NCBI GenBank assembly: GCA_041661765.1
Contig: JBAZTV010000002.1
Location: 74,212 to 138,211, forward strand
DNA from: Candidatus Shapirobacteria bacterium
GTDB taxonomy: Bacteria; Patescibacteriota; Microgenomatia; UBA12405
Direction of reading: 5' to 3'
DNA: 64,000 nucleotides
In this document: positions 14,052-61,004 of the stretch, in pieces
How positions within the stretch are numbered: position 1 is the stretch's first letter
How the letters are laid out: every line of letters starts with the position of its first letter
Program-made: the position numbers and the translations under genes
Notes under the pieces: generated by a model
Database searches by the model: none
Told to the model about the DNA's origin: nothing
The model's input: only the letters and a program-made list of their open reading frames with translations

Positions 14052-14056
14052 ATAAT

Positions 14057-15238: not shown

Positions 15239-15824
15239 ATTATTAATTTTAGTCATCATTGAAATATTTTTTTTAGGATTATTATTTGTAATCTTATCTA
15301 CTATTTTTATTTGGGAACGACCAGGAGTTTCCCAAACATCATTTGAAAAAAATTTACCCCTAGATGTCAATCATTCTTATACCCAATCTATTATTTCCGA
15401 CAGAAACAATTTAAATTCCGTTTCTGTTTTACTAAAGAATCCTGGCTTGCAAAGTAGAGATATCGTTTATATAGAAATCCAAAATAATAATAAAGAAACA
15501 CTCAGATCTTTTAGTATTTCTGGTCGTGGTGTAAAAGATCCTGGTTGGTTAAATTTTAAATTTCCACCACTAAATTCAAAAAAAGGTGATATTTTTCTTT
15601 TAAAAATTAGTAGTAATAGTCAAAAAGATAATCTTCTTTATGTTTATGGTGATCAAAATACTCAAAATATTAATTTCAAAACCACTTTCACCGCTGAAAA
15701 TATAAAAGAATCGTTCAAGGACAATTTAAATCAACAAATAGCTAATTTTCAATCAAGAAATATTTTTCAAACCGTTTTTTATTTATTCTTAATTTTCCTA
15801 GTCGATATTCTTATCTTAATTTAA
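15222..15824 (+). CDS. Hypothetical bitopic membrane protein (N- and C-terminal TM with a central extracytoplasmic domain).
   Basis: ATG at 15222. The track start at 15162 is TTG and overlaps the upstream gene by 77 bp in another frame. No recognisable motif. Confidence 0.5.
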   Translation: MAKISKLLILVIIEIFFLGLLFVILSTIFIWERPGVSQTSFEKNLPLDVNHSYTQSIISDRNNLNSVSVLLKNPGLQSRDIVYIEIQNNNKETLRSFSISGRGVKDPGWLNFKFPPLNSKKGDIFLLKISSNSQKDNLLYVYGDQNTQNINFKTTFTAENIKESFKDNLNQQIANFQSRNIFQTVFYLFLIFLVDILILI

Positions 15825-15847
15825 GATAAGATATTAAATATCTTAAA

Positions 15848-20876: not shown

Positions 20877-20909
20877 TATAGCTTAATTAAATGTTAACAT
20901 TATACAAAC

Positions 20910-39004: not shown

Positions 39005-40783
39005 TTATTTCTTAACAGTAGTTTGATTTGTTTTTAATTGAGTTAAAAGATCAATAGCCTGAGTCCAACCTGGATTAACCTTAATCAACTGTTCTAAAAT
39101 AGAAACTGCCTGTTCCGTCTGACCCATATTAACATAAACCACAGCTGCAGCGTAATAAACTTGCGGATCATTGGGTCTAATTGTATTTAGTTTATTTAAA
39201 TGATTTATTGCTGAATTGAAATTTTTTTCAGTTAAATCAATTTGCAATAAACTATAATAACTTTGATACAAATTAGGTCCATAAGACAAAGCCGTTTCAT
39301 AACTATCTCTAGCTAAATCATATCTTCCAATTTTATAAAAAATATTAGCCCGATTATGATATGCGTCAGCATAATTTGACTTTACTGTTACTGATTGAGT
39401 AAAACCTCTTATTGAAAATAAATACTGTTTTATCTTCTCTTCATCAGTAGTTTCTAATTGTGCTAATTTATCATAATCATCTCCAATATTATTCCAAGCG
39501 TTGTGACTATTTGGTGACACCTGACAAGTATTAACCCATAAATTATGATTAGTCTGCCAATCAACGTTTCTTAAAAATGTTCTTATACTATAAAAAGACA
39601 TTAAAAAAGCAAGTAAAATTATCGCAATATAAACATTCTTTTTATAAATTTTTTCAAAAATTATTGCCAAAAATAAACAAAAACCTAAGCTTCCTAAAAA
39701 TACATATCTTTCTGCAACCAACCAACTAACCTTTACTGGAGCCATAGACGGAGCAGTTGCCGCAAAAATAAAAGCTAATGCAAAAAAAATTTTTTTATCT
39801 TTAAAATAAAAATAAATTACAGCTATCAAATAAGACAAGGTTATTAACCAATTTAACCAAGTAGGTAGAACATACATCGTATGATATAAAGTTAAATCAA
39901 CTGGAATAAACACTAATTGAAGATACTTAGCTATTGATGTTGGATACTGAAAAAACGGATCATAAAAAATTCCACCATAGCCGTTATAACCAGAATTAAC
40001 ACTATTAATTCTAGATACTATATTAGGCCAAATCAGACAAGCCAAAGCTAATAAAACAATTATCATTATTGGCCAATATCTGAATACTTTTATTTTTTTA
40101 ATACTTATATTCTTTAAAATTAAATATATAGGTATTATCAAAAACAATAAAAAAGGTCTGGGTTTATCGTTTAAAAAACTCAAAATAAAAGGAATTATTA
40201 CCCCTAATAAATACCAATTTTTATTTGTTTCTACATACTTTATAAAAAAAATCATTGATACTAATAAATAAAAAGCAATAAATAAATACCCCTTACCAGA
40301 TATCCACGACACCGCTTCAACGTGTACCGGTAAAACAGCGAATATTAATAAAGCTACAATACTTATTCTTTTGTCAAATAAAGAATACAAAAACAAAAAA
40401 GCCAGCCAACACACTGAAATATATAATAAAAGACTAAAAAAATGATATGCCAAAGGTGTTACACCAAAAACATTAGCTATTAATGAATTAATAAAATAAG
40501 TTGAAGAAAAACCATTTAAAGCATATTTTGAAGTTGTCAATTCAGAGTTATTTAATATCGTTGCATAGTCGTCCGATACAAAATCACCATGCAAAGAATT
40601 AAAATACAAAACAAATATTCCCAAAGACAAAAACAATAAAAATTTCCAATTCTCTTTTAATATTTGCCTTATTCCTTTTACATGTTCAATATCAGTTGTT
40701 TCCATCAAAGTTACTGTTTCGATTCTCCTTAATTTTTTAGCTTTTTTCTGCGACATATCTAATATTTTAACAAGTCCCCTCAT
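39005..40783 (-). CDS. Polytopic membrane protein with a C-terminal TPR-repeat domain (TMTC / PMT_2-TPR-like putative glycosyltransferase).
   Basis: About 12 TM followed by TPR-like repeats (AWNNIGDDYDKL..., YADAYHNRANIFYKIGRYDLARDSYETAL, NDPQVYYAAAVVYVNMGQTEQAVSILEQLIKVNP). The start may instead be the ATG at 40756 (MSQKK). Confidence 0.75.
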   Translation of the reverse strand: MRGLVKILDMSQKKAKKLRRIETVTLMETTDIEHVKGIRQILKENWKFLLFLSLGIFVLYFNSLHGDFVSDDYATILNNSELTTSKYALNGFSSTYFINSLIANVFGVTPLAYHFFSLLLYISVCWLAFLFLYSLFDKRISIVALLIFAVLPVHVEAVSWISGKGYLFIAFYLLVSMIFFIKYVETNKNWYLLGVIIPFILSFLNDKPRPFLLFLIIPIYLILKNISIKKIKVFRYWPIMIIVLLALACLIWPNIVSRINSVNSGYNGYGGIFYDPFFQYPTSIAKYLQLVFIPVDLTLYHTMYVLPTWLNWLITLSYLIAVIYFYFKDKKIFFALAFIFAATAPSMAPVKVSWLVAERYVFLGSLGFCLFLAIIFEKIYKKNVYIAIILLAFLMSFYSIRTFLRNVDWQTNHNLWVNTCQVSPNSHNAWNNIGDDYDKLAQLETTDEEKIKQYLFSIRGFTQSVTVKSNYADAYHNRANIFYKIGRYDLARDSYETALSYGPNLYQSYYSLLQIDLTEKNFNSAINHLNKLNTIRPNDPQVYYAAAVVYVNMGQTEQAVSILEQLIKVNPGWTQAIDLLTQLKTNQTTVKK

Positions 40784-42922: not shown

Positions 42923-43723
42923 ATGTTTCAACTCGTTTCTGAAATAAAAGCAATTTATAAATGGCGCGAATTACTTTGGCAAATGGTTAGCCGTGAAGTT
43001 AAAGCTCGTTATAAACAATCAATTTTGGGCTATTTTTGGGTAATTCTAAATCCGTTGGCTCAAATGTTAGTTATGTCTTTTGCTTTTTCAATCATCATGC
43101 GTATTCCAACTAATTCTACAGAAAATATTCCTTACTCCATTTTTCTTTTTGTAGCTTTATTACCCTGGACTCTTTTTGCCAATTCCCTCGGATCAGCCGC
43201 AGCCACATTAGTCAGCGCTGGCAGTTTAATAACTAAAATTTATTTTCCTCGCACAATCCTAGTATTAGCCACCATCATTGCTAAAATAATCGATTTTCTT
43301 TTTTCTACCTCAATATTAATTATTTATATGATTATTTATCACATTCCCGTAAATATAAATATTTTATGGATAATTCCAATTTTCTTTATCCAACAAATAT
43401 TCACACTTGGACTTTCTCTATTCTTTGCCGCAGCCAATTTGCTTTATCGCGACATTCAATATCTCTTAAGCTTAATTCTAACTCTTTGGATGTATTTAAC
43501 CCCGATTATTTATCCAGCCGATATTATTCCTGACAAATTTAGATTTTTGTTTCAACTCAATCCAATGTCTGTAATTGTAAACGCTTATCGTCAAGTTCTC
43601 TTAGGGGGAGGAGTCCCTAAATATTCCAGTCTAATTATTGCTTTTATAGTTTCTTTTATCATTCTATTAGTTGGTCTTTCTTATTTTAAATCACGCGAAA
43701 AAATATTCGCCGATAATATTTAA
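42923..43723 (+). CDS. ABC-2 type exporter permease (Wzm/TagG/KpsM-like).
   Basis: YKWRELLWQMVSREVKARYKQSILGYFWVILNPLAQMLVMSFAF. Six TM. Confidence 0.85.
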   Translation: MFQLVSEIKAIYKWRELLWQMVSREVKARYKQSILGYFWVILNPLAQMLVMSFAFSIIMRIPTNSTENIPYSIFLFVALLPWTLFANSLGSAAATLVSAGSLITKIYFPRTILVLATIIAKIIDFLFSTSILIIYMIIYHIPVNINILWIIPIFFIQQIFTLGLSLFFAAANLLYRDIQYLLSLILTLWMYLTPIIYPADIIPDKFRFLFQLNPMSVIVNAYRQVLLGGGVPKYSSLIIAFIVSFIILLVGLSYFKSREKIFADNI

Positions 43724-44998: not shown

Positions 44999-45544
44999 AT
45001 GAAATCCGGTAATAAAAAGCTTCAAAATTTTAATTCTCAAATTTACGCTTTTATCGATAGTCAAAATCTTAACTTAGGAACTCAATTGAATGGTTGGAAA
45101 CTGGATTTTGGTAAATTTAGAATGTATTTACTTACTAAATTTAAAGTAAAAAAAACATATCTTTTTATTGGTTATATTGAAGGAAATTCAAATTTATATA
45201 GATATTTACAAGAAGTTGGTTATATTTTAATTTTTAAACACGTTTTAGAAATTAAAAAAGATAACAAAACTACAGTTAAGGGTAATGTCGATGCCGAATT
45301 AGTACTACACACTATGATTCAATATCCAAACTATAACCAAGCAATAATTGTTTCAGGAGATGGTGATTTTTATTGTCTTGTAGAATATTTAGAAAAAAAT
45401 AATAAATTAGCAAAAATTATCGTTCCAAATCAAAAGTACTCATCATTATTAAGAAAATATGCAAAATATATTTTCCCATTAAAACCTGCCAAAGAAAAAT
45501 TAGAAATTAAAAAAGAAAAAGAGAGGCATTCCCGCGGGAAATAA
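44999..45544 (+). CDS. NYN-domain protein (LabA-like PIN-fold putative RNase).
   Basis: IYAFIDSQNL...GNVDAELVLHTM...IVSGDGDF matches NYN/LabA catalytic-Asp signatures. Confidence 0.75.
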   Translation: MKSGNKKLQNFNSQIYAFIDSQNLNLGTQLNGWKLDFGKFRMYLLTKFKVKKTYLFIGYIEGNSNLYRYLQEVGYILIFKHVLEIKKDNKTTVKGNVDAELVLHTMIQYPNYNQAIIVSGDGDFYCLVEYLEKNNKLAKIIVPNQKYSSLLRKYAKYIFPLKPAKEKLEIKKEKERHSRGK

Positions 45545-45599
45545 GATTGCCCTTTGGTAGTCCTCTCATCGTGATAAGCTATTATACCAATAATAAACT

Positions 45600-46355
45600 A
45601 TGAATAGTCAATCAAAATTTCCAGATCAAATCGTCATTAAATTTGATCACGTCACTAAAAAATTTAGCCAATTAAGCCAAAAAACCTTTAAAGAATTTAT
45701 TCCCGCCTTAATCCGCGGCGAACAAACTACTGAAAGTTTTACTGCCTTAAACAATATAAGTTTCGAAATTGAAAGAGGAGAGACAGTTGGAATTATCGGT
45801 CCCAATGGTAGTGGTAAATCAACCATATTAAAGCTCATTGCCGGTGTTATGTCGCCAAATTCAGGAACGATTACAGTTAAAGGTAAAATTTCTCCCTTAA
45901 TCGAACTTGGTGCTGGTTTCCACCCAGAATTAACCGGAAGTGAAAATATTTATCTCAACGGTGCCATTCTTGGATTAAAACGTAAAGAAATTGATAAAAA
46001 TTTTCAATCGATTGTTGATTTTGCTGAATTACAAGAATTTATAAATCAACCAATTAAACATTATTCTTCCGGCATGTACATGCGTCTCGCCTTTGCAGTT
46101 GCTATTCATGTCCATCCGGAAATTTTAATTGTTGACGAAATTCTCTCTGTCGGCGATCAAGCTTTTCAAGAAAAATGTTTCGCCAAAATGGAAGAATTCA
46201 AAAAATCAAAAGATGTCACCATTATTTTTGTCTCACACAGCCTTGATCAAGTAGAAAAATTTTGCACTCGTGCTTTATATTTAAACGAACACCAAATTCA
46301 ATTCGACGGTAAAGTTAAAAAAGCAATTGAAAAATATGAAAAAACCTCTAATTAG
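45600..46355 (+). CDS. ABC exporter ATP-binding protein (Wzt/TagH/KpsT-like, short form without a C-terminal carbohydrate-binding domain).
   Basis: Walker A GIIGPNGSGKST, signature YSSGMYMRLAFAVA, Walker B ILIVDE, H-loop FVSHS. Confidence 0.9.
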   Translation: MNSQSKFPDQIVIKFDHVTKKFSQLSQKTFKEFIPALIRGEQTTESFTALNNISFEIERGETVGIIGPNGSGKSTILKLIAGVMSPNSGTITVKGKISPLIELGAGFHPELTGSENIYLNGAILGLKRKEIDKNFQSIVDFAELQEFINQPIKHYSSGMYMRLAFAVAIHVHPEILIVDEILSVGDQAFQEKCFAKMEEFKKSKDVTIIFVSHSLDQVEKFCTRALYLNEHQIQFDGKVKKAIEKYEKTSN

Positions 46356-47547
46356 TATTATTTTAATAAGCTACAAAAACTATCGCTATATTTATGAAGC
46401 GTTAGATTCCATTTTGTGCCAAGATTATCTCAACATAGAAATAATTATTAGCAACGACGGTTCAGATGATTTTGATCAAAAAAGTGTTAATCAATATCTA
46501 ACAAAAAACAAAAAACAAAACATAAAAAATTTTATTATTAATAATAATAAAAAAAATATCGGAACGGTCAAAAACGTTAACAAGGCCATAAAATTATCAA
46601 AAGGTAAATATATAACTATATTTGCCGCAGATGACACTCTTTATAATAGTCAGGTTGTCACTAAGTTTATAAACTCGTTCAACACTTTACCAAAAAATGA
46701 ATTAATTGTAACCTCACAAGTCGACATGTACGATGTAAGACTCAAAAAAATTATACAGCCATTTATTTCTGAAACAAATAAAGAAAAAATTAGAAAATTA
46801 ACACCAAAAAAATTATTTGCAGAAATGTCAACACAATGTATTCTCCCTGGTTCTGGCACTTGTTACAAAAGAGAGATTTTTAAAAAATACGGTTATTTCG
46901 ACGAAAAATATGTTTTAGTAGAAGACTATTCTTCTGCATTAAGACTATCCAGGTTAGGTGTTAAGTATAATTATTTTGATTTTATTTCAATTAAACACCG
47001 TGACGGAGGAATTAGTCATGGAAACATTATTGGAGACACTTCAGCTATAAGTAAATATGATTTAGATATTTTTAATATATTCAAATTTGAGGTTTTACCA
47101 TATTTAAATTTATTAAATGAAAGACAAAAAAAAGAATTCATAAAAAAATATAAAGATATTGAATGGAAATATTCATATAACTATAAATATAAAAATGGGA
47201 CAAAGATACAACGAAGAAAGTTCGTTATAGAAAATTTTAATATCATCTCGTATAGTTTTTTCAAAAACATTTTTAATGATATCTCTGATCAAGTCAAAGG
47301 AAAAAAATTTATGTTATTTCTCATTGGATTAATTCTTTTAACTATTTATAGTTTTAATGTTGATTTTGGCTCAAGTTTTTTCTCCATTTTTAGTATAGAA
47401 AAAAACCCAGACTGGTCTAATTCTATAAATAAAACAATAGGTTTCTTAGGCTTATTTATAGTAACTTTAAGTATAACTATGACTATTTTTTTATTTTCTA
47501 AAAAATATGCAATTCAAATATATAAATTTATTAAATTTATATTCTAA
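46336..47547 (+). CDS. Glycosyltransferase family 2 with a C-terminal membrane region.
   Basis: ATG at 46336; the track start at 46327 is TTG. ISIILISYKNYRYIYEALDSILCQ...IEIIISNDGSDD...FAADD. Two or three C-terminal TM. Confidence 0.8.
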   Translation: MKKPLISIILISYKNYRYIYEALDSILCQDYLNIEIIISNDGSDDFDQKSVNQYLTKNKKQNIKNFIINNNKKNIGTVKNVNKAIKLSKGKYITIFAADDTLYNSQVVTKFINSFNTLPKNELIVTSQVDMYDVRLKKIIQPFISETNKEKIRKLTPKKLFAEMSTQCILPGSGTCYKREIFKKYGYFDEKYVLVEDYSSALRLSRLGVKYNYFDFISIKHRDGGISHGNIIGDTSAISKYDLDIFNIFKFEVLPYLNLLNERQKKEFIKKYKDIEWKYSYNYKYKNGTKIQRRKFVIENFNIISYSFFKNIFNDISDQVKGKKFMLFLIGLILLTIYSFNVDFGSSFFSIFSIEKNPDWSNSINKTIGFLGLFIVTLSITMTIFLFSKKYAIQIYKFIKFIF

Positions 47548-47551
47548 TTTA

Positions 47552-49015
47552 ATGATTCTAAAACGAGCAGTTAATAATTTGGTAAAAAAAATTCCTCCAA
47601 TAAAAAAACTCATTATTGAGAAAAACACATTAATTGAAGAAAAGAATAATTTAATTGAAGAAAAGAATAATTTAATTGAAGAAAAGAATAATTTAATTGA
47701 AGAAAAGAATAATTTAATTGAAGAAAAGAATAATTTAAATAATATTAATATTAAATTAATAGAAGAAAAAGAAACATTAAAACACGAACTATTTGAACTT
47801 AATCAAATTAGATATCAAATAGTAATACAAAAACTTCAAAAGAAAATTAAACAAAAACAAAAAATAAATGTCATATTTATAGTTATTCACAGTTCAGTTT
47901 GGCAATATGATGATTTATATAAAAAATACAGTAATGATAAAAAATACAACCCAATAATAATTGTTGCACCATACATTCTTTGTAAAAAGGATGAAATGAT
48001 AGAAGAAATGAATAAAAGTTATTCTTATTTTAAGAATAAAAATTACAGCGTGTTAAAAACGTATAATAAAACAAATCTTTTTTCAGACATAAAAACAGAA
48101 TTACAACCCGATATAATATTTTTTACAAACCCACATAAAATTACAAATGACAAATATTATATTAATAATTTTTACAAAGACACTCTAACTTGTTATGTAC
48201 CTTACGGAATCATGTCTGCCAATATAGAAAAAAACCAATATAACCAAGAATTTCACAATCTAACATGGAAAAACTTTTATGAAACGGAAATACATAAAAA
48301 AATAGCAGAAAAATATGCTGATAACAAAGGAGTGAATGTTTTAGTTACAGGTTACCCAAAATGCGATATTTTTTTAAACAGAAAATATAAAGCAAAAAAT
48401 GTTTGGAAAAAAACTGACAAAAATTTAAAAAAAATAATTTGGGCACCCCATCACACTATTGAAAATAATGAAAAAGAATTAGGATATTCAAATTTTTTAG
48501 AATATCATCAAATAATGTTAGATATCGCCAAAAAATATCAAAATAAAATCCAAATAGCCTTTAAACCACATCCAATTTTATTGACTAAACTCAAAACACA
48601 TCCTGATTGGGGAGAGAGAAAAATCCATGATTATTGCGAAAAATGGAAAAATGAAAAAAACACTCAATTAGAACTTGATGAATACACTGATTTGTTTTTA
48701 TCATCAGACGGTATGATTCTCGATAGTGTTTCATTTATTGCAGAATATATGTTTATAAACAAACCAGCTTTGTTTATGATCAAAGACAATACTATTAACA
48801 ATAAATTTAACATTTTTGGCTCAATTGCTTATAACCTTTTATACAAATCACAAAACAAAAATGATTTAATTAATTTTATTGAAACAGTAATTTTAAAAGA
48901 AAAAGATGAAAGAAAAGAACAACGAGAAAAATTTCTTAATCAATATTTAATACCACCAAATAATCATAATGCTACAGATAATATTTATTCATTTATAAAC
49001 AATTATTTAAAATGA
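47552..49015 (+). CDS. TagB/TagF-like CDP-alcohol phosphotransferase (Glyphos_transf) with an N-terminal coiled coil containing (IEEKNNL)x5.
   Basis: ATG at 47552, clean after the upstream stop at 47547. C-terminal VLVTGYPKCDIFL (cf. GYPRND) and FLSSDGMILDSVSFIAEYMFINKPALF. Confidence 0.7.
   Translation: MILKRAVNNLVKKIPPIKKLIIEKNTLIEEKNNLIEEKNNLIEEKNNLIEEKNNLIEEKNNLNNINIKLIEEKETLKHELFELNQIRYQIVIQKLQKKIKQKQKINVIFIVIHSSVWQYDDLYKKYSNDKKYNPIIIVAPYILCKKDEMIEEMNKSYSYFKNKNYSVLKTYNKTNLFSDIKTELQPDIIFFTNPHKITNDKYYINNFYKDTLTCYVPYGIMSANIEKNQYNQEFHNLTWKNFYETEIHKKIAEKYADNKGVNVLVTGYPKCDIFLNRKYKAKNVWKKTDKNLKKIIWAPHHTIENNEKELGYSNFLEYHQIMLDIAKKYQNKIQIAFKPHPILLTKLKTHPDWGERKIHDYCEKWKNEKNTQLELDEYTDLFLSSDGMILDSVSFIAEYMFINKPALFMIKDNTINNKFNIFGSIAYNLLYKSQNKNDLINFIETVILKEKDERKEQREKFLNQYLIPPNNHNATDNIYSFINNYLK
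47612..47737 (+). repeat. In-frame perfect tandem repeat, 21-bp unit attgaagaaaagaataattta x5 plus a degenerate leading copy. Encodes (IEEKNNL)n.
   Basis: Directly visible. Units at 47633-47653, 47654-47674, 47675-47695, 47696-47716 and 47717-47737 are identical. Confidence 0.95.
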
Positions 49016-49611
49016 CAAAATTCATCTTCGATTTAGACGGAACAGTAACATCACAAGAAACATTACCTTTAATATCAAAGCATTTCAATATATCAAAAGA
49101 AATAAATAAAATAACAAAAGAAACTATCCAAGGTAATATTCCTTTCGTTGAAAGCTTCATAAAACGAGTCCATATTTTAGGGAAACTACCAGTTGATGAA
49201 ATTTGTGAATTACTTGAAAAAACTGAATTGTACCCTCAAATAATTTGTTTTATAAAAAAAAATAAAAAGAATTGTGTAATAGCCACAGGAAATTTAGATT
49301 GTTGGGTTGAAAAACTTGTTAAAAAAATTGGATGCCTTTCATACACTTCCAATGCCAACGTAGAGAATAATCACGTTACTAAAATAACACAAATTATTAA
49401 AAAAGAAGATATTGTTAAACAATATAAAAATTTAGGAGAAAAAGTTGTATTTATTGGCGACGGAAACAATGACATGGAGGCCATGAGACTCGCAGATGTT
49501 TCAATTGCTTGTGGTTTAACTCATAAACCAGCCAAAAGTATACTTACTATAACCGATTATTTAGTTTTTAATGAGGAGGCACTATGTCGACAACTAAATC
49601 AGTTATTATAA
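49012..49611 (+). CDS. HAD-superfamily phosphatase, phosphoserine-phosphatase (SerB)-like.
   Basis: FIFDLDGTVTSQE (motif I DxDGT), IGDGNNDMEAM (motif IV). Confidence 0.75.
   Translation: MTKFIFDLDGTVTSQETLPLISKHFNISKEINKITKETIQGNIPFVESFIKRVHILGKLPVDEICELLEKTELYPQIICFIKKNKKNCVIATGNLDCWVEKLVKKIGCLSYTSNANVENNHVTKITQIIKKEDIVKQYKNLGEKVVFIGDGNNDMEAMRLADVSIACGLTHKPAKSILTITDYLVFNEEALCRQLNQLL
49573..49579 (+). promoter_or_regulatory. Strong Shine-Dalgarno sequence GAGGAGG, 5 nt upstream of the ATG at 49584.
   Basis: aatGAGGAGGcactATG. This is the strongest RBS in the window; it lies inside the 3' end of the HAD gene. Confidence 0.5.
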
Positions 49612-50225
49612 GTTGTGCCGGAATAGGTTCAAGGCTCGGCTTAGGTCAAACTAAAGCTTTAATCGATATTGCTGGAAAATCTCTAATTCGTTGGCAATTA
49701 GAACTATTGGATAGTATAAAAGATATAAGAATTGTTGTTGGATATCAATCTAATGATGTTATTAAAGAAGTTTTAAAAATCAGAAAAGATGCAATTTTTA
49801 TCTACAATCATAATTATTTTGAAACAAAAACAGGTGCTAGTTTTTATTTAGGATCAAAAGACGCAAATGAATATGTTATAGAATGGGATGGTGATTTACT
49901 TGTGCATCCTGAAGATGTTAAAAAATGTTTACAAATGGATCAGGAATATATTGGTTACAGTGACAAAGTTTCTGATGAATCTGTTTATGTTAAAACAAAC
50001 AATGAAGGGGATGTTTTAAGTTTTTCAAGAGAAAACGGTGATTACGAATGGACAGGTCCAGCATGTATTAGAAAGAATAAAGTTAAATATACATCTGGTA
50101 ATGTTTTCAATCAACTTGAAGAATATTTACCAATGAAAGGATTAAAAATACGAGCACAAGATATTGATACTTACGATGACTACAAAAAAGCGATAGAATT
50201 TATTAAAAGTTGGCAAAAAAAATAA
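49584..50225 (+). CDS. LicC-like nucleotidyltransferase (CTP:phospho-alcohol / sugar-phosphate cytidylyltransferase).
   Basis: VIISCAGIGSRLGLGQTKALIDIAGKSLIRWQLELL...RIVVGY parallels LicC AAGLGTRL...PKAL...PLIEYQIEFL...IVGY. Confidence 0.7.
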   Translation: MSTTKSVIISCAGIGSRLGLGQTKALIDIAGKSLIRWQLELLDSIKDIRIVVGYQSNDVIKEVLKIRKDAIFIYNHNYFETKTGASFYLGSKDANEYVIEWDGDLLVHPEDVKKCLQMDQEYIGYSDKVSDESVYVKTNNEGDVLSFSRENGDYEWTGPACIRKNKVKYTSGNVFNQLEEYLPMKGLKIRAQDIDTYDDYKKAIEFIKSWQKK

Positions 50226-50227
50226 TA

Positions 50228-50944
50228 ATGAATGTACTTTTTTTAGATCAATTTAAAAAAAAATATTTCAATTTAATATTGAAATACCCCTTCATTGTAA
50301 ATTATATCGCAAATAAACAATCACAAAACTACTGGATAAACCAAAAAAATTGGCGTGTAAAAGACATTTTTTATAAAAGAGCAATCAAACAAGAACAATT
50401 TCTTAAAAAAAACTTCATTCCCCTCCTTAATAAAAATTCTATTATTTGTGATCTTGCTTGTGCTTGTGGCGATTTTGCTTTTATTGTGGCTCCATTTGTT
50501 AAAAAAATTGAAGGATTCGATTTATCTTCTAAAATGGTTAAATTAGCAAATAAAACGGCAAGAGATAAAAAAATCAACAATACTCATTTTTATGAAGCTA
50601 ATATCAATAACTATTTCTTTAAAAGAAAATATGACCACTTTATGTGTTTAGGTCTTTTTACATATATCTTTAACAATAAAGATGCTAATAATATTATTAA
50701 AAAAATTTCAGATTCTATTAAAATAAACGGTTATTTAGTCATAAAAGACACCTTAACAACAGAAAAAAATAACATAATCCATCTCGTATTTAATGATCCA
50801 TATTCAGCAAATTACAGATCCAAAAAAGAATATCTTAAACTATTTAAAGAAAAAAACTTTTCTTTTATTAAAGAAACAAAACTATCAAAAGGAAACGATG
50901 ATCGTTTTTTTAGTTATTGTGCAATTTTTCAAAAAACAAAATGA
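50228..50944 (+). CDS. Class I SAM-dependent methyltransferase.
   Basis: ATG at 50228; the track start at 50210 is TTG. ICDLACACGDFAFIV (motif I), EGFDLSSKMV, INGYLVIKD. Confidence 0.65.
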   Translation: MNVLFLDQFKKKYFNLILKYPFIVNYIANKQSQNYWINQKNWRVKDIFYKRAIKQEQFLKKNFIPLLNKNSIICDLACACGDFAFIVAPFVKKIEGFDLSSKMVKLANKTARDKKINNTHFYEANINNYFFKRKYDHFMCLGLFTYIFNNKDANNIIKKISDSIKINGYLVIKDTLTTEKNNIIHLVFNDPYSANYRSKKEYLKLFKEKNFSFIKETKLSKGNDDRFFSYCAIFQKTK

Positions 50945-51657
50945 AAAAAAATGAAGTTATAGGAATAATTGGTGGAGCAGGTGTTGCAGCCACTAATAAA
51001 TTAAATGAACTTATTGAAAATATTTTTACTCTAAATGGCGCCTTTAGAGACATGCATCATCCTGAAATTATTATTTATCAAGCCACAAAAGCACCTTCAA
51101 GAAGTATGTATCTTGAAGGCAAAGGGGAATCATTTATTAGTGATTACATTAAAATTGGTAAAAAACTTAAAAGTGCGGGTGCTACAACTCTTTGTATGAG
51201 TTGCAACACAGCTCATTATGCTATAGACGAAATTCAAAATGAAGTTGGTTTGCCTTTTATCAATCTAATTGAAGAGGTTGTTTCCGAAATTAAAAACACA
51301 AATCAAAAAAAAATTGGACTAATTGCTTCAGATGGATGTTTAATGGGTAAGGTTTACGAAAAATATTTTGATAAAATTTATCCTGAAGCTAAAATCATTT
51401 ACCCAGACAAAATTTTTCAGCAAGAAGTAACTAGGGGAATTTGCAATATTAAAAATATCAACAGGTTTAAAGAAGACTCCAGTCTAGACAGACCAAAAAA
51501 TATTTTTACCAATGTGAGTAAACATCTAATTAAAAAAAATGCCGACATAATTTTAATCGGATGTACTGATATAAGAGTAGATTATTTTAATCAAAACTCT
51601 GTTGATTCATTAGAAGTTTTAGCAAAAAAAATTTATCAAAAAACATATGAAAAATAA
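50941..51657 (+). CDS. Asp/Glu/hydantoin-racemase-family enzyme (aspartate-racemase-like).
   Basis: VIGIIGGAGVAAT, GKGE, MSCNTAHYAIDEIQ and IILIGCTDI match the two catalytic-Cys motifs (CNTAH / GCTE) of aspartate racemases. Confidence 0.75.
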   Translation: MKKNEVIGIIGGAGVAATNKLNELIENIFTLNGAFRDMHHPEIIIYQATKAPSRSMYLEGKGESFISDYIKIGKKLKSAGATTLCMSCNTAHYAIDEIQNEVGLPFINLIEEVVSEIKNTNQKKIGLIASDGCLMGKVYEKYFDKIYPEAKIIYPDKIFQQEVTRGICNIKNINRFKEDSSLDRPKNIFTNVSKHLIKKNADIILIGCTDIRVDYFNQNSVDSLEVLAKKIYQKTYEK

Positions 51658-52285
51658 CGATGCTTTAATTTTTTTTAAAAATATGTCAAAAAACAAATCG
51701 CTTAACCCCAATTCACTTAAATTGGCAAAAAATAGTGATTTTTCTACAATCGATGCTAAATTTATTTTAAGTCACACAAATAAAAATACAAAAATTCTCG
51801 ATCTAGGAAGTGGAAGTGGTCTTGTTATTAATAAAATTAATGACAAAGTAAAACATATTTTAGCTGTTGAACCTTTTGTTGAATTTACAAAATATATAAA
51901 CACAAACACTAATATTACTATTATAAATAAAGATATCTTAAATTTTAAAACGAACGAACTTTTTGACTTGGTTACAATGTTCGCTGTTGTTCAATATTTT
52001 AATCAAGACGAAATCGTAAAAATTTACACCAAATACAAAAATAATTTAAAAACCAATGGCAAATTAATAATAAAAGGCCAATTTGGAGTAGAGGATGATG
52101 TCATAATTTCTGGTTATTCAGATGAACTAAAAACTAATTATTATTCACAATATCGTCACTTAAATAAAGAAATCGATATTTTAAGAAAAATAGGATATAA
52201 AAATATCGAAGTAGTAGATATATATCCACCAGAGTGCAATCGTTGGAAGAATACCCATTTCTATGCAATAATTGCAGAAAAATAG
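51647..52285 (+). CDS. Class I SAM-dependent methyltransferase.
   Basis: ILDLGSGSGLVINKI (motif I), ILAVEPF, GKLIIKG. Confidence 0.7.
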   Translation: MKNNDALIFFKNMSKNKSLNPNSLKLAKNSDFSTIDAKFILSHTNKNTKILDLGSGSGLVINKINDKVKHILAVEPFVEFTKYINTNTNITIINKDILNFKTNELFDLVTMFAVVQYFNQDEIVKIYTKYKNNLKTNGKLIIKGQFGVEDDVIISGYSDELKTNYYSQYRHLNKEIDILRKIGYKNIEVVDIYPPECNRWKNTHFYAIIAEK

Positions 52286-52304: not shown

Positions 52305-53402
52305 ATGATCAAATTTCTAGATCTTTATAAAATAAACCAACAATACAGAAAAGAAATAAATAAAGCCATTAATCAAGTTTTAGACTCCGGCTATTATATT
52401 TTAGGTCAAGAAGTTAAAAACTTTGAAACAAATTTTGCTAATTGTATTGGAACAAAATATTGTATTGGCACCGCCAATGGACTAGAAGCGCTCACATTAA
52501 TTTTAATGGCCTATAAGGAATTAAATATCCTAAAAGATAATGATGAAATAATTGTTCCAGCCAATACTTTTATAGCCTCAATTTTAGCTATCTCTCAAAA
52601 TAATCTAACTCCAGTTTTGGTCGAACCAGATATAAATACATACAATATTAATCCTGATCTTATTGAAGAAAAAATAACCAAAAAAACAAAAGCTATTATG
52701 ATAGTCCACTTATATGGCCAAACTGTAGAAATGGACAAAATTTGGAAATTAGCCAAAAAATATAATTTAAAAATTATAGAAGATTCGGCACAAGCTCATG
52801 GATCAAAATATAAAAATAAAATGGTCGGAAACCTTGGTGATGCTTCTGGTTTTAGTTTCTATCCGGGAAAAAATTTAGGAGCCATTGGAGATGCTGGCGC
52901 AATTACAACCAATGATAAAAAATTAGCCGACACAATTAGGGCAATTGCTAATTATGGTTCTTCTGAAAAATATGTGAACATTTATAAAGGAATAAACAGT
53001 CGACTCGACGAAATTCAAGCTGCAATTCTTAATATAAAACTTAAATATTTGGATTCCGATAATAATAAAAGACGCATTGTTGCTAAATATTATTTGGACA
53101 ATATTAAAAATCAGAAAATAACTTTACCAAATATAACCGATTTCAATGAGCATAATTTTTACGTCTTTGTAATCAGAACAAAAAATAGAAATCAATTGCA
53201 AAAATATTTAGAAAATAATGGAATTGGATCCTTAATTCATTATCCAATTCCACCCCATAAACAACAAGCATATAAAGAATGGAATAAATTAAATTTACCA
53301 ATTACAGAGCAAATTCACAATGAAATTCTAAGCATCCCCATTAGTCCAGTTTTGACCCAAAATGAAGTGAAAAAAATCGTAAAAGTCTTAAACAATTTTT
53401 AA
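52305..53402 (+). CDS. DegT/DnrJ/EryC1/StrS-family PLP-dependent sugar aminotransferase (FdtB/QdtB-like).
   Basis: [62 protein letters not shown]...[10 protein letters not shown]. Confidence 0.85.
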
Positions 53403-53405
53403 AAT

Positions 53406-53858
53406 TTATTTTTGTTTTGCAGGATTACCAACAACTATCAAACCAGGTAAAACATCTACAACAACTACACTTCCAGCTCCTACCATAGAACCTTCACCGA
53501 TAGTTACTCCAGGTAAAATAGTAGCATTTGCACCAATTGAAGCACCCTTTTTAATTAAAATCCTTTCTTTTTTCCAATTTTTGTTTCCAGACTTTGGATA
53601 TCTATCATTACAAAAAGTCACATTTGGTCCAACAAAAACATCATCTTCAATTGTAATCCCATCCCAAATTTGAACCCCAGATTTAATAGTTACATTATTC
53701 CCAATTACAACTTCATTCTCAATAAAACAATGCGAACAAATATTACAATCATTACCTATTTTTGCATCAGGTAATACAACACAAAATTGCCAAATTCTTG
53801 TACGCTCACCAATTTTTTTACTATCAACAATTGCAGTAGGGTGAATATAAATATCCAT
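53406..53858 (-). CDS. Left-handed beta-helix (hexapeptide-repeat) sugar N-acetyltransferase (FdtC/QdtC/WxcM-N-like).
   Basis: Repeating [LIV]G-x4 hexapeptides: [67 protein letters not shown]. Confidence 0.8.
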
Positions 53859-53860
53859 AA

Positions 53861-54265
53861 TTATTTTATTAATTCTTCAAAAAATGTATCATCGGGAGAC
53901 CATTCAGTGTCAGTATAATTTAATAGTGAAGCTTTTTTACTTAAATTTCTAAAAGAATGAGCTATATTTGGACCAATCTCCAATCTTGTATATTTATCTG
54001 ATTTACTATCTATAATAATTCTAACTATTTCACCAGTTTTCATATCTTTCAAAACTACTTCTACTTTTCCAGTTACCAATCCAAACCATTCTCTCCATTT
54101 TTTATGATAATGATTACCTCTAACGACATTGGACTTACCAAAAGTAACAAAATATATCTGCCCAAATTCCTTAAATTCTTTTTTTAAATCTGAATCTCTT
54201 AAAAAGACTACTAAATGACCTCTTTTGTCATCATGTTTTTCAATAAAATCAATTTTATAATCCAT
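53861..54265 (-). CDS. FdtA/WxcM-C-like cupin: dTDP-4-keto-6-deoxyhexose 3,4-ketoisomerase.
   Basis: ATG at 54265 (MDYKIDF); the track start at 54331 is further upstream and probably non-[13 protein letters not shown]...[28 protein letters not shown] matches the FdtA RG..H.HKK pattern. Confidence 0.75.
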
Positions 54266-54314
54266 AACACTTCCATTATAGCAATAATGATAAAATTCAT
54301 AAACAAATAGACAT

Positions 54315-55880
54315 ATGAAAAAGAAAATCATCTCTTTCCTAAATAAATACTGGATTTTACTGTCATTTTTATCAATTTTTACAATCTACATACTACCGGT
54401 TTGTTTTCAAAACAACAATAATTTAAACCTAGTTTCCGCTGAACATATTGATAGTGGTTCTATCCTCGGCAGTATCATGCAAATGAATAGCAAAAATACA
54501 CCAAACTCTTTTTATAATCAAAATATTCCATACCACACCGGCTTTTATGGCTACCCCTACAATAGTATTGTATTTTGGAGCTTCAAATTCGAAAAAATAT
54601 TTTTCAGATCATATGCCAACATTAATTTTTATATTTTTCCATTAATTGCAAAATTATTAAATTTTATTTTTGCTTCATTTTCAATAATATATCTGTATCA
54701 ACTATCAAGAAAAATCCTAAAATATAATCTATCAAGAATTTTATTACTTTCGCTTTTCATAATTTTCCCCGAATATCTTCATTACGTTTTTCATATTAAG
54801 CCAGATATTTTAGGTTTATTATTTTCAATAATATCCCTAAATTACTTATATGATTATTTACAAAATTCTAAAAATAATAAAAATATAATTAAAGCCAATG
54901 TTTTTGGCGGACTATCTATTTTGTGCAAACAACCACACATATTTATAATTTTCCCTTTATTAATAGGGTTCGTTTCTTCTTTAAAAGGTAACCTAAAAGA
55001 AAAACTTTCCATTTTTTTTAAAACATATTTATACTCTGGAATAATTTTTCTATTTTTATTTTTTATTATTCACCCCTATGCCTTCCTGGAACTAAAAGCA
55101 TTTTTAGCAAGACAAATATTGATGACAAGTATGACATCCGCCAGTTATATCGATAATATTAACTTTTGGTTGCCAACATTTATCGGGGATCCATTACTCT
55201 TTATCTTTGTATTCACTCCATTTATTTTTATATTATTAAATTTATTTAAAAAGTTTCGCAATAAAACAACACTATTTTTGTTATTAATTTCAACATATAT
55301 TATTAGTTATCTTTTATGGTTAACCCTAAAAGTTGGCCCAATGCGATTTATTCATTACTTAATTCCGGTTTTTCCTTTTTCAATTTTAATTTTTTCTTAC
55401 ATTTTTGACTTTTTTTTCAATAAAACATTTTGCTCAAAATCTAAAATCAACCAAATATTTTATCTAACTATTTTTATAACGGTTTTTTTATTATCAGTAA
55501 AAACCATCAACTATACAATTATTAAAACCAAAAATATTATACAATCGCCCTATGATTTTCAAAAAACAGAAACATACAAAGCCACCAAAAAGTTTGAAAA
55601 AGAATTCAGTAATGAGCAATTAAATAAAAAAACAATAATTTACTCGATATCCTTACCAGTAAACGATACCCTATATGAAAATTCTATCAACACTTGGCAG
55701 GTTAATGAAAAAGTTGTTAATGAATTAAAACCGGAATATCTTTTCATTGATTTCACTGTTTATTGGGAAAAACCATATGAATATTGGGAAAAAATTGCTA
55801 AACAAAACGAATTGAACAAAGAAATGTTGTTTATAGACAATTTTGATAAAGAAAAAAATATAGTTCTTTTCTACAAATAA
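54315..55880 (+). CDS. Polytopic membrane protein, possibly a distant family B member (GFYGYPYN motif).
   Basis: 521 aa with 12+ TM. AEHIDSGSILGSIMQMN...NIPYHTGFYGYPYN echoes HDDM...GQIP...GFGYGYPLF. Divergent from 53861-54265, with only 49 bp between them. Confidence 0.6.
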   Translation: MKKKIISFLNKYWILLSFLSIFTIYILPVCFQNNNNLNLVSAEHIDSGSILGSIMQMNSKNTPNSFYNQNIPYHTGFYGYPYNSIVFWSFKFEKIFFRSYANINFYIFPLIAKLLNFIFASFSIIYLYQLSRKILKYNLSRILLLSLFIIFPEYLHYVFHIKPDILGLLFSIISLNYLYDYLQNSKNNKNIIKANVFGGLSILCKQPHIFIIFPLLIGFVSSLKGNLKEKLSIFFKTYLYSGIIFLFLFFIIHPYAFLELKAFLARQILMTSMTSASYIDNINFWLPTFIGDPLLFIFVFTPFIFILLNLFKKFRNKTTLFLLLISTYIISYLLWLTLKVGPMRFIHYLIPVFPFSILIFSYIFDFFFNKTFCSKSKINQIFYLTIFITVFLLSVKTINYTIIKTKNIIQSPYDFQKTETYKATKKFEKEFSNEQLNKKTIIYSISLPVNDTLYENSINTWQVNEKVVNELKPEYLFIDFTVYWEKPYEYWEKIAKQNELNKEMLFIDNFDKEKNIVLFYK

Positions 55881-55920: not shown

Positions 55921-57189
55921 TTATATTTTAGGATTTATCGTTATATTTTTTAAAAAACCATTTAAAACTCTTTTTATATAATCCATCCTTTCTTTATTAA
56001 TTCCTGGCCAAACACCCAACCAAAAAGCATTATTCATAATAATATCCGACTCTTTCATTTCTCCAACGATCCTAAAATTATCTCTAATTTTTATATAAGC
56101 TGGATGACGAAGCAAATTTCCTGCAAAAACATTTCTTGTTCCTATTTTATTTTTTTCTAAATATTCAGTTAATTCATTCCTTGTAAATGGAGCATCTTTT
56201 TTTACTACTAATGGAAACCCAAAAGGGGACAAGTCCACTTTTTCATCCTCTCTCATCAGGGTAAAATATTTTTCATATTTATTAAAAAAATTATATAAAA
56301 TCTTATAGTTCTCTTGTCTTTTCTTAATAAATTTTGGCAATTTTTTTAATTGAGCCAATCCAATTGCTGCCTGAAAATCAGTTAATTTTAAATTATATCC
56401 TACCTCAGAATAAATATATTTATGGTCGTAACCATAAGGTAATTCTCCTAACTGCCATTTAAATCGATTTTTACAAGAATCATCTTTGCCAGTTCCACAC
56501 CAACAATCTCTACCCCAATCCCTAAAACGTCTAATTGATTTATTAATTAATGGATCGTTGGTAATAATCGCTCCACCTTCACCCATGGTAATATGATGAG
56601 CTGGATAAAAACTAAAAGTTGCAATATGACCAAAAGTACCTAAAATTTTACCATCATACTTTGACCCTAAAGCGTCACAACAGTCTTCAATTAACCACAA
56701 ATCATATTTTTTAACCAACTTCATAATTTCTGTAAGATCAAAAGGTTTTCCTAAAGTATGAGCAATCATTATTAATTTAGTTTTATTGGTTATTGCCGCT
56801 TCAATTTTCTTTGGGTCAATATTAAGAGTGTCTGCCTCGGCATCAATAAACACCGGTTTCAAACCATGCTGAATTCCCGGATTTACAGTTGTTGGAAAAG
56901 ATACAGGAGTAGTTATAAATTCATCTCCTACTTTAAGCCTCTTCTCACCAAAAATATCTGATGTCAGCGCCGCTAATGCTACTAAATTTGCCGAAGATCC
57001 AGAATTAACTAATGATACAAATTTAATTCCTAAATATTTTTTAAACTCTTCTTCAAATTTTAAAGCGAATTCTCCCTCTGTCCACCAACCATCTTTCGCT
57101 ACTTTTATAGCATTATTAATTTCTTCCTTATCAAAAACTTTACCAGAAACTGGTATATAACTTTCACCTGGTGTAAATTTTTTATTCAT
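55921..57189 (-). CDS. RfbH/DdhC(E1)/ColD-like PLP/PMP-dependent NDP-4-keto-6-deoxyhexose 3-dehydrase.
   Basis: GKVFDKEEINNAIKVAKDGWWTEGEFALKFEEEFKKYLGIKFVSLVNSGSSANLVALAAL matches the RfbH N-terminal region closely. 422 aa. Confidence 0.8.
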   Translation of the reverse strand: MNKKFTPGESYIPVSGKVFDKEEINNAIKVAKDGWWTEGEFALKFEEEFKKYLGIKFVSLVNSGSSANLVALAALTSDIFGEKRLKVGDEFITTPVSFPTTVNPGIQHGLKPVFIDAEADTLNIDPKKIEAAITNKTKLIMIAHTLGKPFDLTEIMKLVKKYDLWLIEDCCDALGSKYDGKILGTFGHIATFSFYPAHHITMGEGGAIITNDPLINKSIRRFRDWGRDCWCGTGKDDSCKNRFKWQLGELPYGYDHKYIYSEVGYNLKLTDFQAAIGLAQLKKLPKFIKKRQENYKILYNFFNKYEKYFTLMREDEKVDLSPFGFPLVVKKDAPFTRNELTEYLEKNKIGTRNVFAGNLLRHPAYIKIRDNFRIVGEMKESDIIMNNAFWLGVWPGINKERMDYIKRVLNGFLKNITINPKI

Positions 57190-57199
57190 AAAATTAATT

Positions 57200-58141
57200 T
57201 TAAAAATTTAATTTTTCATCAACAATATAAACAGGTCTATTTTTTGTTTCTTCAACTATTACCTGAACATATTTACCTATTATACTCAATGCCATTAAAT
57301 TTAATCCACCAAAAAACACCACCGCTAACATAATTGGAATTGATGCATTAATTGGATTGCCAAAAACAAATACTGTAAATAAATACCCAATAATAAACAA
57401 AAATGAAAGTATTGTTAAAATAAAACCAAAATAAACAATCAAATCTAAAGGAAGATAAGAAAAGCCAAAAATTCCTCTTTCTGAATGTTTTAAATAATCA
57501 AAAAAACCACCATAAGAGCTTTTGCCATTTTTTCTATCGCACCTTTGGTAGGAAACGAAAGTTTTTTTAAAACCAACCCAAATACTTAACCCTCTACCAA
57601 ACCGAAATTTTTCTGGAAGAGATCTTATAGCAGTAACTATTTTTTTATCATATAATCCAAAACCAGAAACATTAACAGGTATATCGATATTAGATATTCT
57701 TCTAAATAATCCATAAAATGACTTTCTCATTAAAGTCATAAAATAAGAATTATCACTTGCCTTCTCGTATTGAGCCAACACTAGATCGTATTTATTTTCC
57801 CATTGTTTTATTAATTTTGGTATTAATTCAGGTGGATCTTGCAAATCACAAGGTAACATTATCAAAGCATCTAATTCTTCATTCGCAAAATCCATAACTG
57901 CCTGGCTAGAAGCTTCTGGCCCAAAATTTCTGGATAAAAAAACTCCTCTTACTTTTTTATCTCTCTTTATAAGAGTACTTATTTTTTCTCTAGTCTTATC
58001 AATACTTCCATTATCAACAAACAAAAAACTAAATTCGTAATTTTTAATTTTACTAATTATTTCTATAGTCTTTTCATACATTTCCAAAACATTTTTTTCT
58101 TCATTAAAACATGGAATACCAATAACTATTTTTTTATTCAT
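57200..58141 (-). CDS. GT2 polyprenyl-phosphate glycosyltransferase (GtrB/ArnC/DPM1-like) with two C-terminal TM helices.
   Basis: IVIGIPCFNEEKNVLEMY...FLFVDNGSIDKT...DLQDPPELIP, plus a C-terminal TM pair. Confidence 0.85.
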   Translation of the reverse strand: MNKKIVIGIPCFNEEKNVLEMYEKTIEIISKIKNYEFSFLFVDNGSIDKTREKISTLIKRDKKVRGVFLSRNFGPEASSQAVMDFANEELDALIMLPCDLQDPPELIPKLIKQWENKYDLVLAQYEKASDNSYFMTLMRKSFYGLFRRISNIDIPVNVSGFGLYDKKIVTAIRSLPEKFRFGRGLSIWVGFKKTFVSYQRCDRKNGKSSYGGFFDYLKHSERGIFGFSYLPLDLIVYFGFILTILSFLFIIGYLFTVFVFGNPINASIPIMLAVVFFGGLNLMALSIIGKYVQVIVEETKNRPVYIVDEKLNF

Positions 58142-59024: not shown

Positions 59025-59071
59025 CTACTGAGTATATCAAAATAAAATATCTTGTTATAATAATCCTACCA

Positions 59072-60983: not shown

Positions 60984-61004
60984 TTAATAATTTAATAAAA
61001 ATTT

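Follow-up and report, generated by a model that had tools for sequence, protein, structure and literature searches.

A PF04464-family phosphotransferase with a repeat-built, hypervariable helical stalk in a Candidatus Shapirobacteria surface-glycan locus

The TagF, TarL and TagB enzymes of teichoic acid synthesis (PF04464; PDB entries 3l7i–3l7m and 8va1) combine a GT-B fold with GYPxxD, K-x-H-P and SD..S..EY..KP motifs, an amphipathic helix that precedes the GT-B domain, an adjacent gene for supply of a cytidine diphosphate (CDP)-activated donor, and export of the product by an ATP-binding cassette (ABC) transporter. The gene described here, at positions 47552..49015 (forward strand) of a 64,000-nucleotide stretch of Candidatus Shapirobacteria contig JBAZTV010000002.1 (the window), encodes a 487-residue protein that shares all of these features. 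It lacks the immunoglobulin-like or other globular N-terminal domain carried by the polymerases, and its connecting helix spans 84 residues rather than the 35 found in TarL. The N-terminal subdomain cannot be aligned to that of TagF or TarL, and a counterpart of TarL W299-H300 could not be located; the subfamily instead has invariant WAPHH and CYVPY motifs. The gene is linked to 3-amino-3,6-dideoxyhexose genes rather than to a teichoic acid linkage-unit pathway.

Two further groups of enzymes offer points of comparison. TagF-like domains also act outside teichoic acid synthesis in the Gram-negative capsule polymerases Cps1B, Cps3D, Cps7D and Bcs3, which likewise make ABC-transporter-dependent glycans and carry accessory modules; these are multi-domain polymerases fused to glycosyltransferase domains, whereas our protein is a single-domain enzyme whose sole accessory is a helix built from repeats. 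Tetratricopeptide repeat (TPR) domains are also found in TagF-like capsule polymerases. The O-antigen proteins WbdD (Escherichia coli O9a and Klebsiella pneumoniae O3) and WbbB (K. pneumoniae O12) share with this locus an ABC-transporter-dependent assembly, associated methyltransferases and a long helical or coiled-coil segment between the membrane-proximal end and a distal enzyme that caps the glycan with a phospho- or other group (PMC11231755). They differ in catalytic module, which is a kinase/methyltransferase in WbdD, a 3-deoxy-D-manno-octulosonic acid (Kdo) transferase in WbbB and PF04464 here, and the polypeptide described here runs in the reverse orientation, with its presumed anchor at the N terminus, a half-polar helix core and a partner Wzt that lacks a cap-binding module.

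Coiled-coil rulers of glycan length have, to our knowledge, been described only for a few enterobacterial O-antigen terminators, where engineered insertions and deletions proved the role. Another protein ruler, YscP of the Yersinia injectisome, sets a physical distance through its length, which is changed by internal duplications; YscP is a secreted component of a secretion machine and has no sequence relationship to the enzyme stalk considered here. In the literature searched, we found no description of a coiled-coil stalk on a TagF-like enzyme. The enzyme type is known, and the repeat-built, hypervariable helical stalk on a PF04464 enzyme is new. The enzyme belongs to a different catalytic family from the enterobacterial terminators, and its stalk has visibly been built and rebuilt by heptad-sized tandem duplication.

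The repeat array and the helical stalk

Tandem Repeats Finder (TRF) identifies a single outstanding array in the window, with a period of 21 bp and a score of 218; the runner-up scores 65. The perfect part (47630..47738, forward strand) comprises 5.2 copies with 100% matches and encodes (LIEEKNN)x5, or equivalently (IEEKNNL)x5. The unit ATTGAAGAAAAGAATAATTTA occurs exactly five times, starting at 47633, 47654, 47675, 47696 and 47717 and ending at 47737, which bears out the five perfect in-frame repeats reported in a preliminary description of this DNA. Each base equals the base 21 positions further on for 88 bases without a break; the longest such run outside the array, at any period from 6 to 100, is 18. 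Given the window GC content of 28.5%, a rough estimate of the chance occurrence of the array is about 1e-40. Two further TRF rows include diverged units (47603–47727, 91%; 47629–47769, 87%), so that the whole array (47603..47769, forward strand) contains about eight units, with IEKNTL upstream of the perfect copies and NNINIKL and IEEKETL downstream. The presence of older, diverged units on both sides of the perfect ones indicates that the helix grew over several rounds, of which the latest is very recent.

The array lies in frame, and GYPKCD, WAPHH, KPHP and SSDGMILDSVSFIAEYMFINKP follow it in the translation. The start codon at 47552 agrees with the NCBI protein MFA6185094.1 (487 residues, 100% identical; P0001 in our set). 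It sits 4 nt past the upstream stop codon, a spacing shared by relatives, and it lies within the stretch of DNA similarity to L085, the closest relative, which extends as far as position 47557. An alternative start at 47507, giving 502 residues, was rejected because it would overlap the upstream gene by 41 nt, corresponds to no called product on record and is not the conserved start. The same five copies are present in a second contig from ENA (L003), assembled independently, which matches window positions 46969–52015 with 100% identity. The first 179 bases of that contig are unrelated to the window, and the junction (window position 46969) falls within the upstream glycosyltransferase gene; this reflects either a chimeric end of the contig or a rearrangement at the strain level.

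The protein opens with a basic amphipathic helix, MILKRAVNNLVKKI (residues 1–14; 47552..47593, forward strand), followed by Pro15-Pro16. AlphaFold2 (AF2) predicts a helix at residues 2–13 and a break at 14–16. This helix has a hydrophobic moment of 0.54 and a net charge of +4, and the Lys and Pro conserved in the family consensus form a family-wide K...P motif. We presume that it is a membrane anchor. The stalk follows as one continuous predicted helix (residues 17–100; 47600..47851, forward strand) of 84 residues, or 12 heptads, with a length of about 12.5 nm and pLDDT (predicted local distance difference test) values of 83–97 across the block. In TarL, a 35-residue amphipathic helix before the GT-B domain lies on the membrane and is used for membrane binding (PMC10901376).

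Comparison with a typical family member, the 433-residue Flavobacterium cutihirudinis protein P0112, indicates how the stalk arose. Its model contains a helix at residues 2–11, a proline break, a 31-residue helix at 14–44 and a GT-B domain that begins at residue 49. A short basic amphipathic helix, a proline break, a connecting helix and a GT-B domain make up the layout of the whole subfamily. The region before the first β-strand is 104 residues long in our protein, against a family median of 54 and a 95th percentile of 82 (n = 148). An N-terminal helical extension is therefore the rule in this subfamily, and the stalk is best regarded as an elongated family helix rather than an added domain; it has been lengthened by about 53 residues, 35 of which are perfect repeats. 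The preliminary description had held that a coiled-coil stalk is not found on described TagF enzymes, and had named homologues without any N-terminal extension, together with an invariant repeat number, as evidence against its reading. Homologues do carry an extension.

The heptad register is unbroken over all 12 heptads (residues 17–100), 11 of which have Leu or Ile at one core position. The repeat units have Leu at this position and Glu or Lys at the second one, and their Ile lies beside the Leu. Hydrophobic residues thus occupy 13 of the 24 a/d positions, and since a coiled coil calls for both core positions to be hydrophobic, a coiled coil is not established. A long polar helix is well supported by the structure prediction, and a stable coiled coil is possible from the sequence. 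The earlier proposal of an N-terminal coiled coil of roughly 110 residues therefore survives as a heptad periodicity and a single 84-residue helix within a 104-residue region. Two relatives, P0002 and P0121, contain about four canonical heptads each.

These features bear on the idea that the stalk serves only to hold enzyme subunits together, forming a parallel coiled coil that would take the place of the N-terminal tetramerization or dimerization domains in TarL, or of TPR domains in capsule polymerases, with its length being irrelevant. TagF-like enzymes are indeed oligomers that use variable N-terminal domains (PMC10901376), Leu recurs at every seventh position over 12 heptads, and the a/d heptads of P0002 and P0121 are canonical. 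However, the core of the repeat unit is half polar and typical family members have no such module. We consider oligomerization as the sole function to be improbable.

Comparison with close relatives shows that the stalk-coding segment (47558..47813, forward strand) is the most variable part of the gene. We placed its limits from blastn segment boundaries against L085 and from comparison of the protein with P0121, the product of L085. The 256 bp here have no DNA similarity detectable by blastn to the 151 bp found in L085. On one side, positions 45610–47557, which cover the ABC ATPase gene, the glycosyltransferase gene and the first two codons, are 88% identical to L085; on the other, positions 47814–48472, covering the stalk end and part of the catalytic domain, are 94% identical. 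A gap in similarity between flanks this well conserved indicates that the segment is hypervariable. P0121, encoded in the corresponding operon of L085, has a different N-terminal region of 69 residues. In a collection of about 15 billion protein sequences, the cluster at 90% identity has only two other members: an identical sequence with a longer start call, and P0121 with its different N terminus. No allele with another copy number was found in the public collections searched, and a metagenome scan for close relatives or copy-number variants gave 234 pattern matches, none of which was confirmed.

A second expansion occurs at the same position in a distant and culturable organism. The Francisella philomiragia protein P0076 (499 residues, 43–45% identical) contains 7.8 copies of a different 21-bp unit, 94% identical to one another and encoding LSEQQNK. 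When Francisella alleles of P0076 were sought, the nearest relative proved to be 58% identical and, at 433 residues, of the usual family length. The Francisella expansion is an independent, convergent case. Other members have repeats in the same linker that are not heptads (P0119, a 6-residue unit; P0160, two copies of a unit of about 19 residues). P0119 was rejected as a heptad-repeat or coiled-coil case, since its 6-residue unit contains proline.

The non-heptad repeats suggest that the linker site simply tolerates insertions, and neutral expansion is a serious rival to any functional account of the stalk. In such a scheme, slippage in a permissive linker of an AT-rich genome would have left a tolerated product, and the enzyme would work like its short-stalk relatives. 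The unit is of low complexity and A-rich in a genome of 28.5% GC, the heptad register is kept automatically once a 21-bp unit exists, and the closest relative manages with a different 69-residue N-terminal region. Against this, the whole Shapirobacteria-like clade with the same operon retains an elongated, coiled-coil-like N-terminal region of 69–83 residues, and P0002 and P0121 have their canonical heptads. The older diverged copies further indicate that a lengthened helix was retained through several rounds of duplication, and two phylogenetically remote lineages have expanded 21-bp units at the same position. On balance we rate neutral expansion as rather unlikely, though ahead of both the purely oligomeric role and a different GT-B activity, considered below. 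Among related loci, the four in which a 404-residue GT2 protein is encoded directly before the PF04464 gene have N-terminal regions of 69–104 residues; in L086, where an FdtA gene precedes the PF04464 gene, this region has 54.

Catalytic domain and subfamily

Residues 105–487 (47864..49012, forward strand) form the GT-B catalytic domain. This segment matches PF04464 (Glyphos_transf) with 40.9 bits against a gathering cut-off of 22.1 (E = 1.6e-10), and PF04464 is the sole Pfam family above threshold. The alignment covers model positions 143–365 of 367, corresponding to the C-terminal half. The full-length protein has no match among the Pfam and NCBIfam models; the repeat therefore masks the PF04464 domain, which appears in the scan once the stalk is trimmed. 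Several close relatives likewise have no precomputed Pfam match, and a repeat that conceals a domain from standard Pfam scans is a lesson for annotation. The TagF-like nature of the catalytic part, anticipated in the preliminary description, is thus upheld by the PF04464 model, provided that the stalk is removed.

A phmmer search of the PDB with the catalytic part returned nothing useful, and a family profile was needed. The profile, built from 71 homologues, matches the Staphylococcus aureus ribitol-phosphate polymerase TarL (8va1) with E = 1e-6 and aligns the GYP(K/R)xD and SSDG signatures quoted earlier with their TarL equivalents. GYPKCD (residues 267–272; 48350..48367, forward strand) aligns with TarL GVPRTD, and G267 and D272 are invariant in the 71 sequences. 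WAPHH (residues 297–301; 48440..48454, forward strand) occupies the position of TarL FAPTF; W297, P299 and H300 are invariant, and A298 and H301 nearly so. KPHP (residues 338–341; 48563..48574, forward strand) aligns with TarL KMHP. The segment SSDGMILDSVSFIAEYMFINKP (residues 384–405; 48701..48766, forward strand), with the pattern SSDG...EY...NKP, aligns with TarL TDLLISDYSSLIYEYAVFKKP (TD...EY...KKP). H433 of TarL is a catalytic histidine (PMC10901376). This second catalytic histidine, H584 in TagF, has its counterpart in H340, within the invariant K-P-H-P.

The AF2 model of the catalytic domain (pLDDT 94.3) has the two Rossmann domains of a GT-B fold, and Foldseek matches it to TarL (8va1, E = 7e-10) and TagF (3l7m, E = 2e-9). 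The invariant WAPHH and CYVPY motifs are particular to the subfamily. An ungapped extrapolation of the TarL alignment would place the position of the catalytic base near the invariant Y215 and Y218; the nearly invariant H113, H235 and H248 are other candidates. Together, the sequence comparisons support assignment of the protein to a divergent subfamily of PF04464. Members typically have about 435 residues, and at least 567 matches among GTDB species-representative genomes were confirmed by tblastn. The loci listed include Bacteroidota, candidate phyla radiation (CPR) bacteria, Firmicutes, Synergistaceae, Anaeromyxobacter and others. What emerges is a large uncharacterized PF04464 subfamily tied to 3-amino-3,6-dideoxyhexose loci and to several kinds of CDP-donor cassette.

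Two surveys of family loci, one covering 81 and the other about 83, define these associations. In 62 of the 81 loci an FdtB-like DegT aminotransferase gene is found no more than 6 kb from the PF04464 gene, often adjacent to it, and a hexapeptide acetyltransferase gene is present in 33. Twenty loci contain a TagD-like cytidylyltransferase, 8–10 of the 81 contain a cassette of the type seen here, and 5–7 contain a set of PPDK-like, glutamine amidotransferase (GATase) and NTP_transf_3 genes; in all, at least 35 loci have a cytidylyltransferase gene of one of three kinds near the PF04464 gene. A Wzx flippase is encoded in 58 of about 83 loci. Methyltransferases are fused (P0016) or adjacent to family members, and typical members do not have the extra N-terminal domain carried by TagF-like polymerases. 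On this sequence evidence, the subfamily looks like a group of single-transfer enzymes that decorate or cap 3-amino-3,6-dideoxyhexose glycans using various CDP-donors.

The frequency of the DegT gene could also point to another activity for these proteins, such as that of a 3-amino-3,6-dideoxyhexose glycosyltransferase with a GT-B fold rather than a CDP-alcohol phosphotransferase. The N-terminal subdomain is unlike that of TagF and TarL, epimerases head the Foldseek matches, and many Flavobacterium loci have no cytidylyltransferase gene within 8 kb. However, no Pfam family other than PF04464 passes threshold, the nucleotide-side motifs are invariant, including the equivalent of TarL H433, and cytidylyltransferase genes of three kinds recur in the neighborhoods. 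We regard this alternative as very improbable.

Two unusual arrangements were seen among family loci. In two Firmicutes (L010, 5628–9182, and L035, 5628–9188; Lutispora, Clostridiaceae), the PF04464 module makes up the C-terminal portion of an open reading frame of about 1185 codons, preceded by about 800 residues that carry no annotation here. Several Bacteroidales loci (L013 and L023–L026) contain two or three tandem paralogues of the PF04464 gene.

The glycan operon and a possible spacer role

The gene belongs to an operon in the order Wzm ... Wzt, GT2, PF04464, SerB-like HAD protein, LicC-like nucleotidyltransferase, methyltransferase, amino-acid racemase and methyltransferase, followed by DegT, hexapeptide acetyltransferase and FdtA-like genes. 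The Wzm/TagG-like ABC-2 permease (42923..43723, forward strand) and the Wzt/TagH-like ABC ATPase (45600..46355, forward strand) were identified from Pfam and NCBIfam models. The Wzt protein has 251 residues and consists of the nucleotide-binding domain only; its Pfam matches are all to nucleotide-binding or P-loop families, the best being ABC_tran at residues 50–181. The GT2 glycosyltransferase (46327..47547, forward strand; Pfam) has a hydrophobic C-terminal tail and ends 4 nt before the stalk gene, a pairing also seen in L085, L087 and L002. A compact Wzm-Wzt-GT2-PF04464-HAD-nucleotidyltransferase-methyltransferase operon is present in L087, and the operon is also conserved in L085 and L002.

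Domain searches place a HAD-IB gene of phosphoserine-phosphatase type (49012..49611, forward strand) directly downstream, overlapping the stop codon of the stalk gene. The next gene encodes a LicC/IspD-like nucleotidyltransferase (49584..50225, forward strand; Pfam NTP_transf_3) that matches the CTP:phosphocholine cytidylyltransferase of PDB entry 1jyk with E = 2.9e-7 and probably makes a CDP-activated donor. It is followed by methyltransferase, amino-acid racemase and methyltransferase genes (50228..52285, forward strand), conserved in L002, L084 (as fusions) and L087. The 3-amino-3,6-dideoxyhexose genes (52305..54331) encode a DegT aminotransferase on the forward strand and a hexapeptide acetyltransferase and FdtA-like isomerase on the reverse strand. 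The first two were assigned from NCBIfam; FdtA rests on Pfam matches of the L002 and L086 orthologues and on phmmer matches of the window reading frame to FdtA genes in family loci.

The cassette at 49012–52285 (SerB-like HAD, LicC-like nucleotidyltransferase, one or two methyltransferases and sometimes a racemase) recurs downstream of the PF04464 gene in distant phyla (L002, L004, L007, L008, L012, L015, L017, L020, L086 and L087). Its product is probably a methylated, CDP-activated donor that originates from an amino alcohol or an amino acid. The best NCBIfam match of the racemase is to cysteate racemase, under the cut-off, and L084 has a racemase–methyltransferase fusion. A second type of neighborhood is found in Roseivirga thermotolerans (L075, 5680–13477), where the PF04464 gene is flanked by genes for a methyltransferase, a PPDK-like/phosphoenolpyruvate-utilizing enzyme, a class-I glutamine amidotransferase and an NTP_transf_3 protein; the same type is also listed for L014, L028, L054 and L062. 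These are the enzyme families of the Campylobacter jejuni O-methyl-phosphoramidate route, and some subfamily members may be phosphoramidate transferases. PF04464 membership of the C. jejuni transferases Cj1421 and Cj1422 could not be established from the literature.

Taken together, these observations suggest a model in which the membrane-associated enzyme would most likely use a CDP-activated donor to place a single alcohol-phosphate group on a lipid-linked glycan destined for the surface. The acceptor would contain 3-acetamido-3,6-dideoxyhexose, the donor would come from the LicC-like cytidylyltransferase cassette directly downstream, and the glycan would be assembled in the cytoplasm and exported through the neighboring Wzm/Wzt transporter. 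The connecting helix would have grown from about 31 to 84 residues as a 21-bp unit, coding for one heptad, was duplicated in frame again and again; the lasting identity of five units indicates very recent last rounds and points to slipped-strand mispairing or unequal recombination. The outcome would be a polar and rigid helix with heptad periodicity, a stalk about 12.5 nm long to which each unit contributes about 1 nm. It would separate the catalytic domain from the N-terminal anchor and may self-associate, and a change in unit number would alter the distance between anchor and catalytic domain.

We hold with high confidence to the repeat, the family assignment, the predicted helix, its elongation, the hypervariability of the segment and the independent Francisella expansion. 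Membrane anchoring, a spacer role and the identities of donor and acceptor are inferred, and the full picture of a membrane-associated, single-transfer PF04464 enzyme bearing a slippage-grown helical spacer seems to us about evenly poised. That the stalk acts as a spacer is a tentative reading, somewhat short of an even chance. If the stalk is functional, natural variation in its length would provide a length series for the ruler idea outside the Enterobacteria.

Several observations weigh against this model. The TagF-like GT-B domain is itself membrane-binding, which is hard to square with a 12-nm stand-off (PMC10901376), and most family members have a 31-residue helix, including L018 and L075, which have ABC transporter genes nearby. 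The five-copy count comes from two short-read assemblies, possibly of related samples. AF2 models any isolated repetitive helix as straight and with high confidence, and hardly any aligned sequences cover the stalk, whose a/d positions are only about half hydrophobic. For the catalytic domain, UDP-N-acetylglucosamine 2-epimerases rank above TagF and TarL in Foldseek. A profile of residues 101–262 gave only chance matches in the PDB, with no TagF or TarL chain at E ≤ 10, and the sequence profile did not locate a counterpart of the catalytic base (TagF H444, TarL H300), as the N-terminal Rossmann subdomain has no detectable similarity to any solved structure.

A stronger version of the spacer model follows the analogy with WbdD and WbbB, in which the phosphotransferase, carried at the far end of a coiled coil, would terminate the chain; glycans would be capped only once they had grown to a set length, and the repeat number would set the modal chain length. 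The glycan locus here is ABC-transporter-dependent, and its enzyme mirrors WbdD in passing from an anchor helix through a long helix to the catalytic domain. Methyltransferases lie beside or are fused to family members (P0016, Francisella, L075), recalling the methyl-phosphate cap added by WbdD, and the L075 member adjoins a 426-residue Wzt with an unannotated C-terminal extension. Coiled-coil length varies naturally among the methyltransferase genes of E. coli group 3 capsules (PMC13171606), and a terminator of this kind would fit the rule that glycan terminators bear coiled coils whose length sets chain length (PMC11231755). However, the 251-residue Wzt of our locus has no C-terminal carbohydrate-binding module that could recognize a cap, and the half-polar heptads have no canonical core. 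Most of the family lacks a long stalk and resides in Wzx-type loci, so termination is not a family trait. No recruitment site for a polymerase was identified, and glycan length cannot be read from sequence. We judge a terminator of this type unlikely.

Slightly less likely still is a tunable ruler, in which slippage-prone heptads would set the distance of a phospho-cap enzyme from the membrane in steps of about 1 nm, surface-polymer length or decoration would shift with repeat number, and F. philomiragia would have reached the same solution. If true, an ultra-small CPR bacterium would adjust its surface polymer by gain and loss of repeats. The earlier suggestion that the stalk sets the length of a polyol-phosphate polymer is not borne out, given that the subfamily looks like single-transfer decorators with several CDP-donor cassettes.

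Other features of the glycan island

The entire 64-kb window is one surface-glycan island. Within the operon, a NYN-domain gene (PF01936; 44999–45609) lies between a DUF4230 gene and wzt. About 600 bp containing this gene (45007–45609) are absent from the syntenic L085, and the segment therefore looks like an insertion into the glycan operon. Ten paralogous genes for membrane glycosyltransferase-like proteins (PMT_2, PMT, PTPS_related and GT87 families) occur at 1648–3372, 12014–25816 and 39005–40783, and eight of these form a near-tandem array. Elsewhere the window encodes a Wzx-like flippase, many GT2 and GT4 proteins, radical-SAM-like proteins and methyltransferases. The region at 55921–62780 encodes RfbH (CDP-6-deoxy-4-hexulose 3-dehydrase, 629 bits), an epimerase, a DmpF-like acetaldehyde dehydrogenase, a DmpG/HMGL-like aldolase and a three-domain thiamine pyrophosphate enzyme, a set that resembles a route to a branched-chain 3,6-dideoxyhexose of the yersiniose (YerE-like) type.

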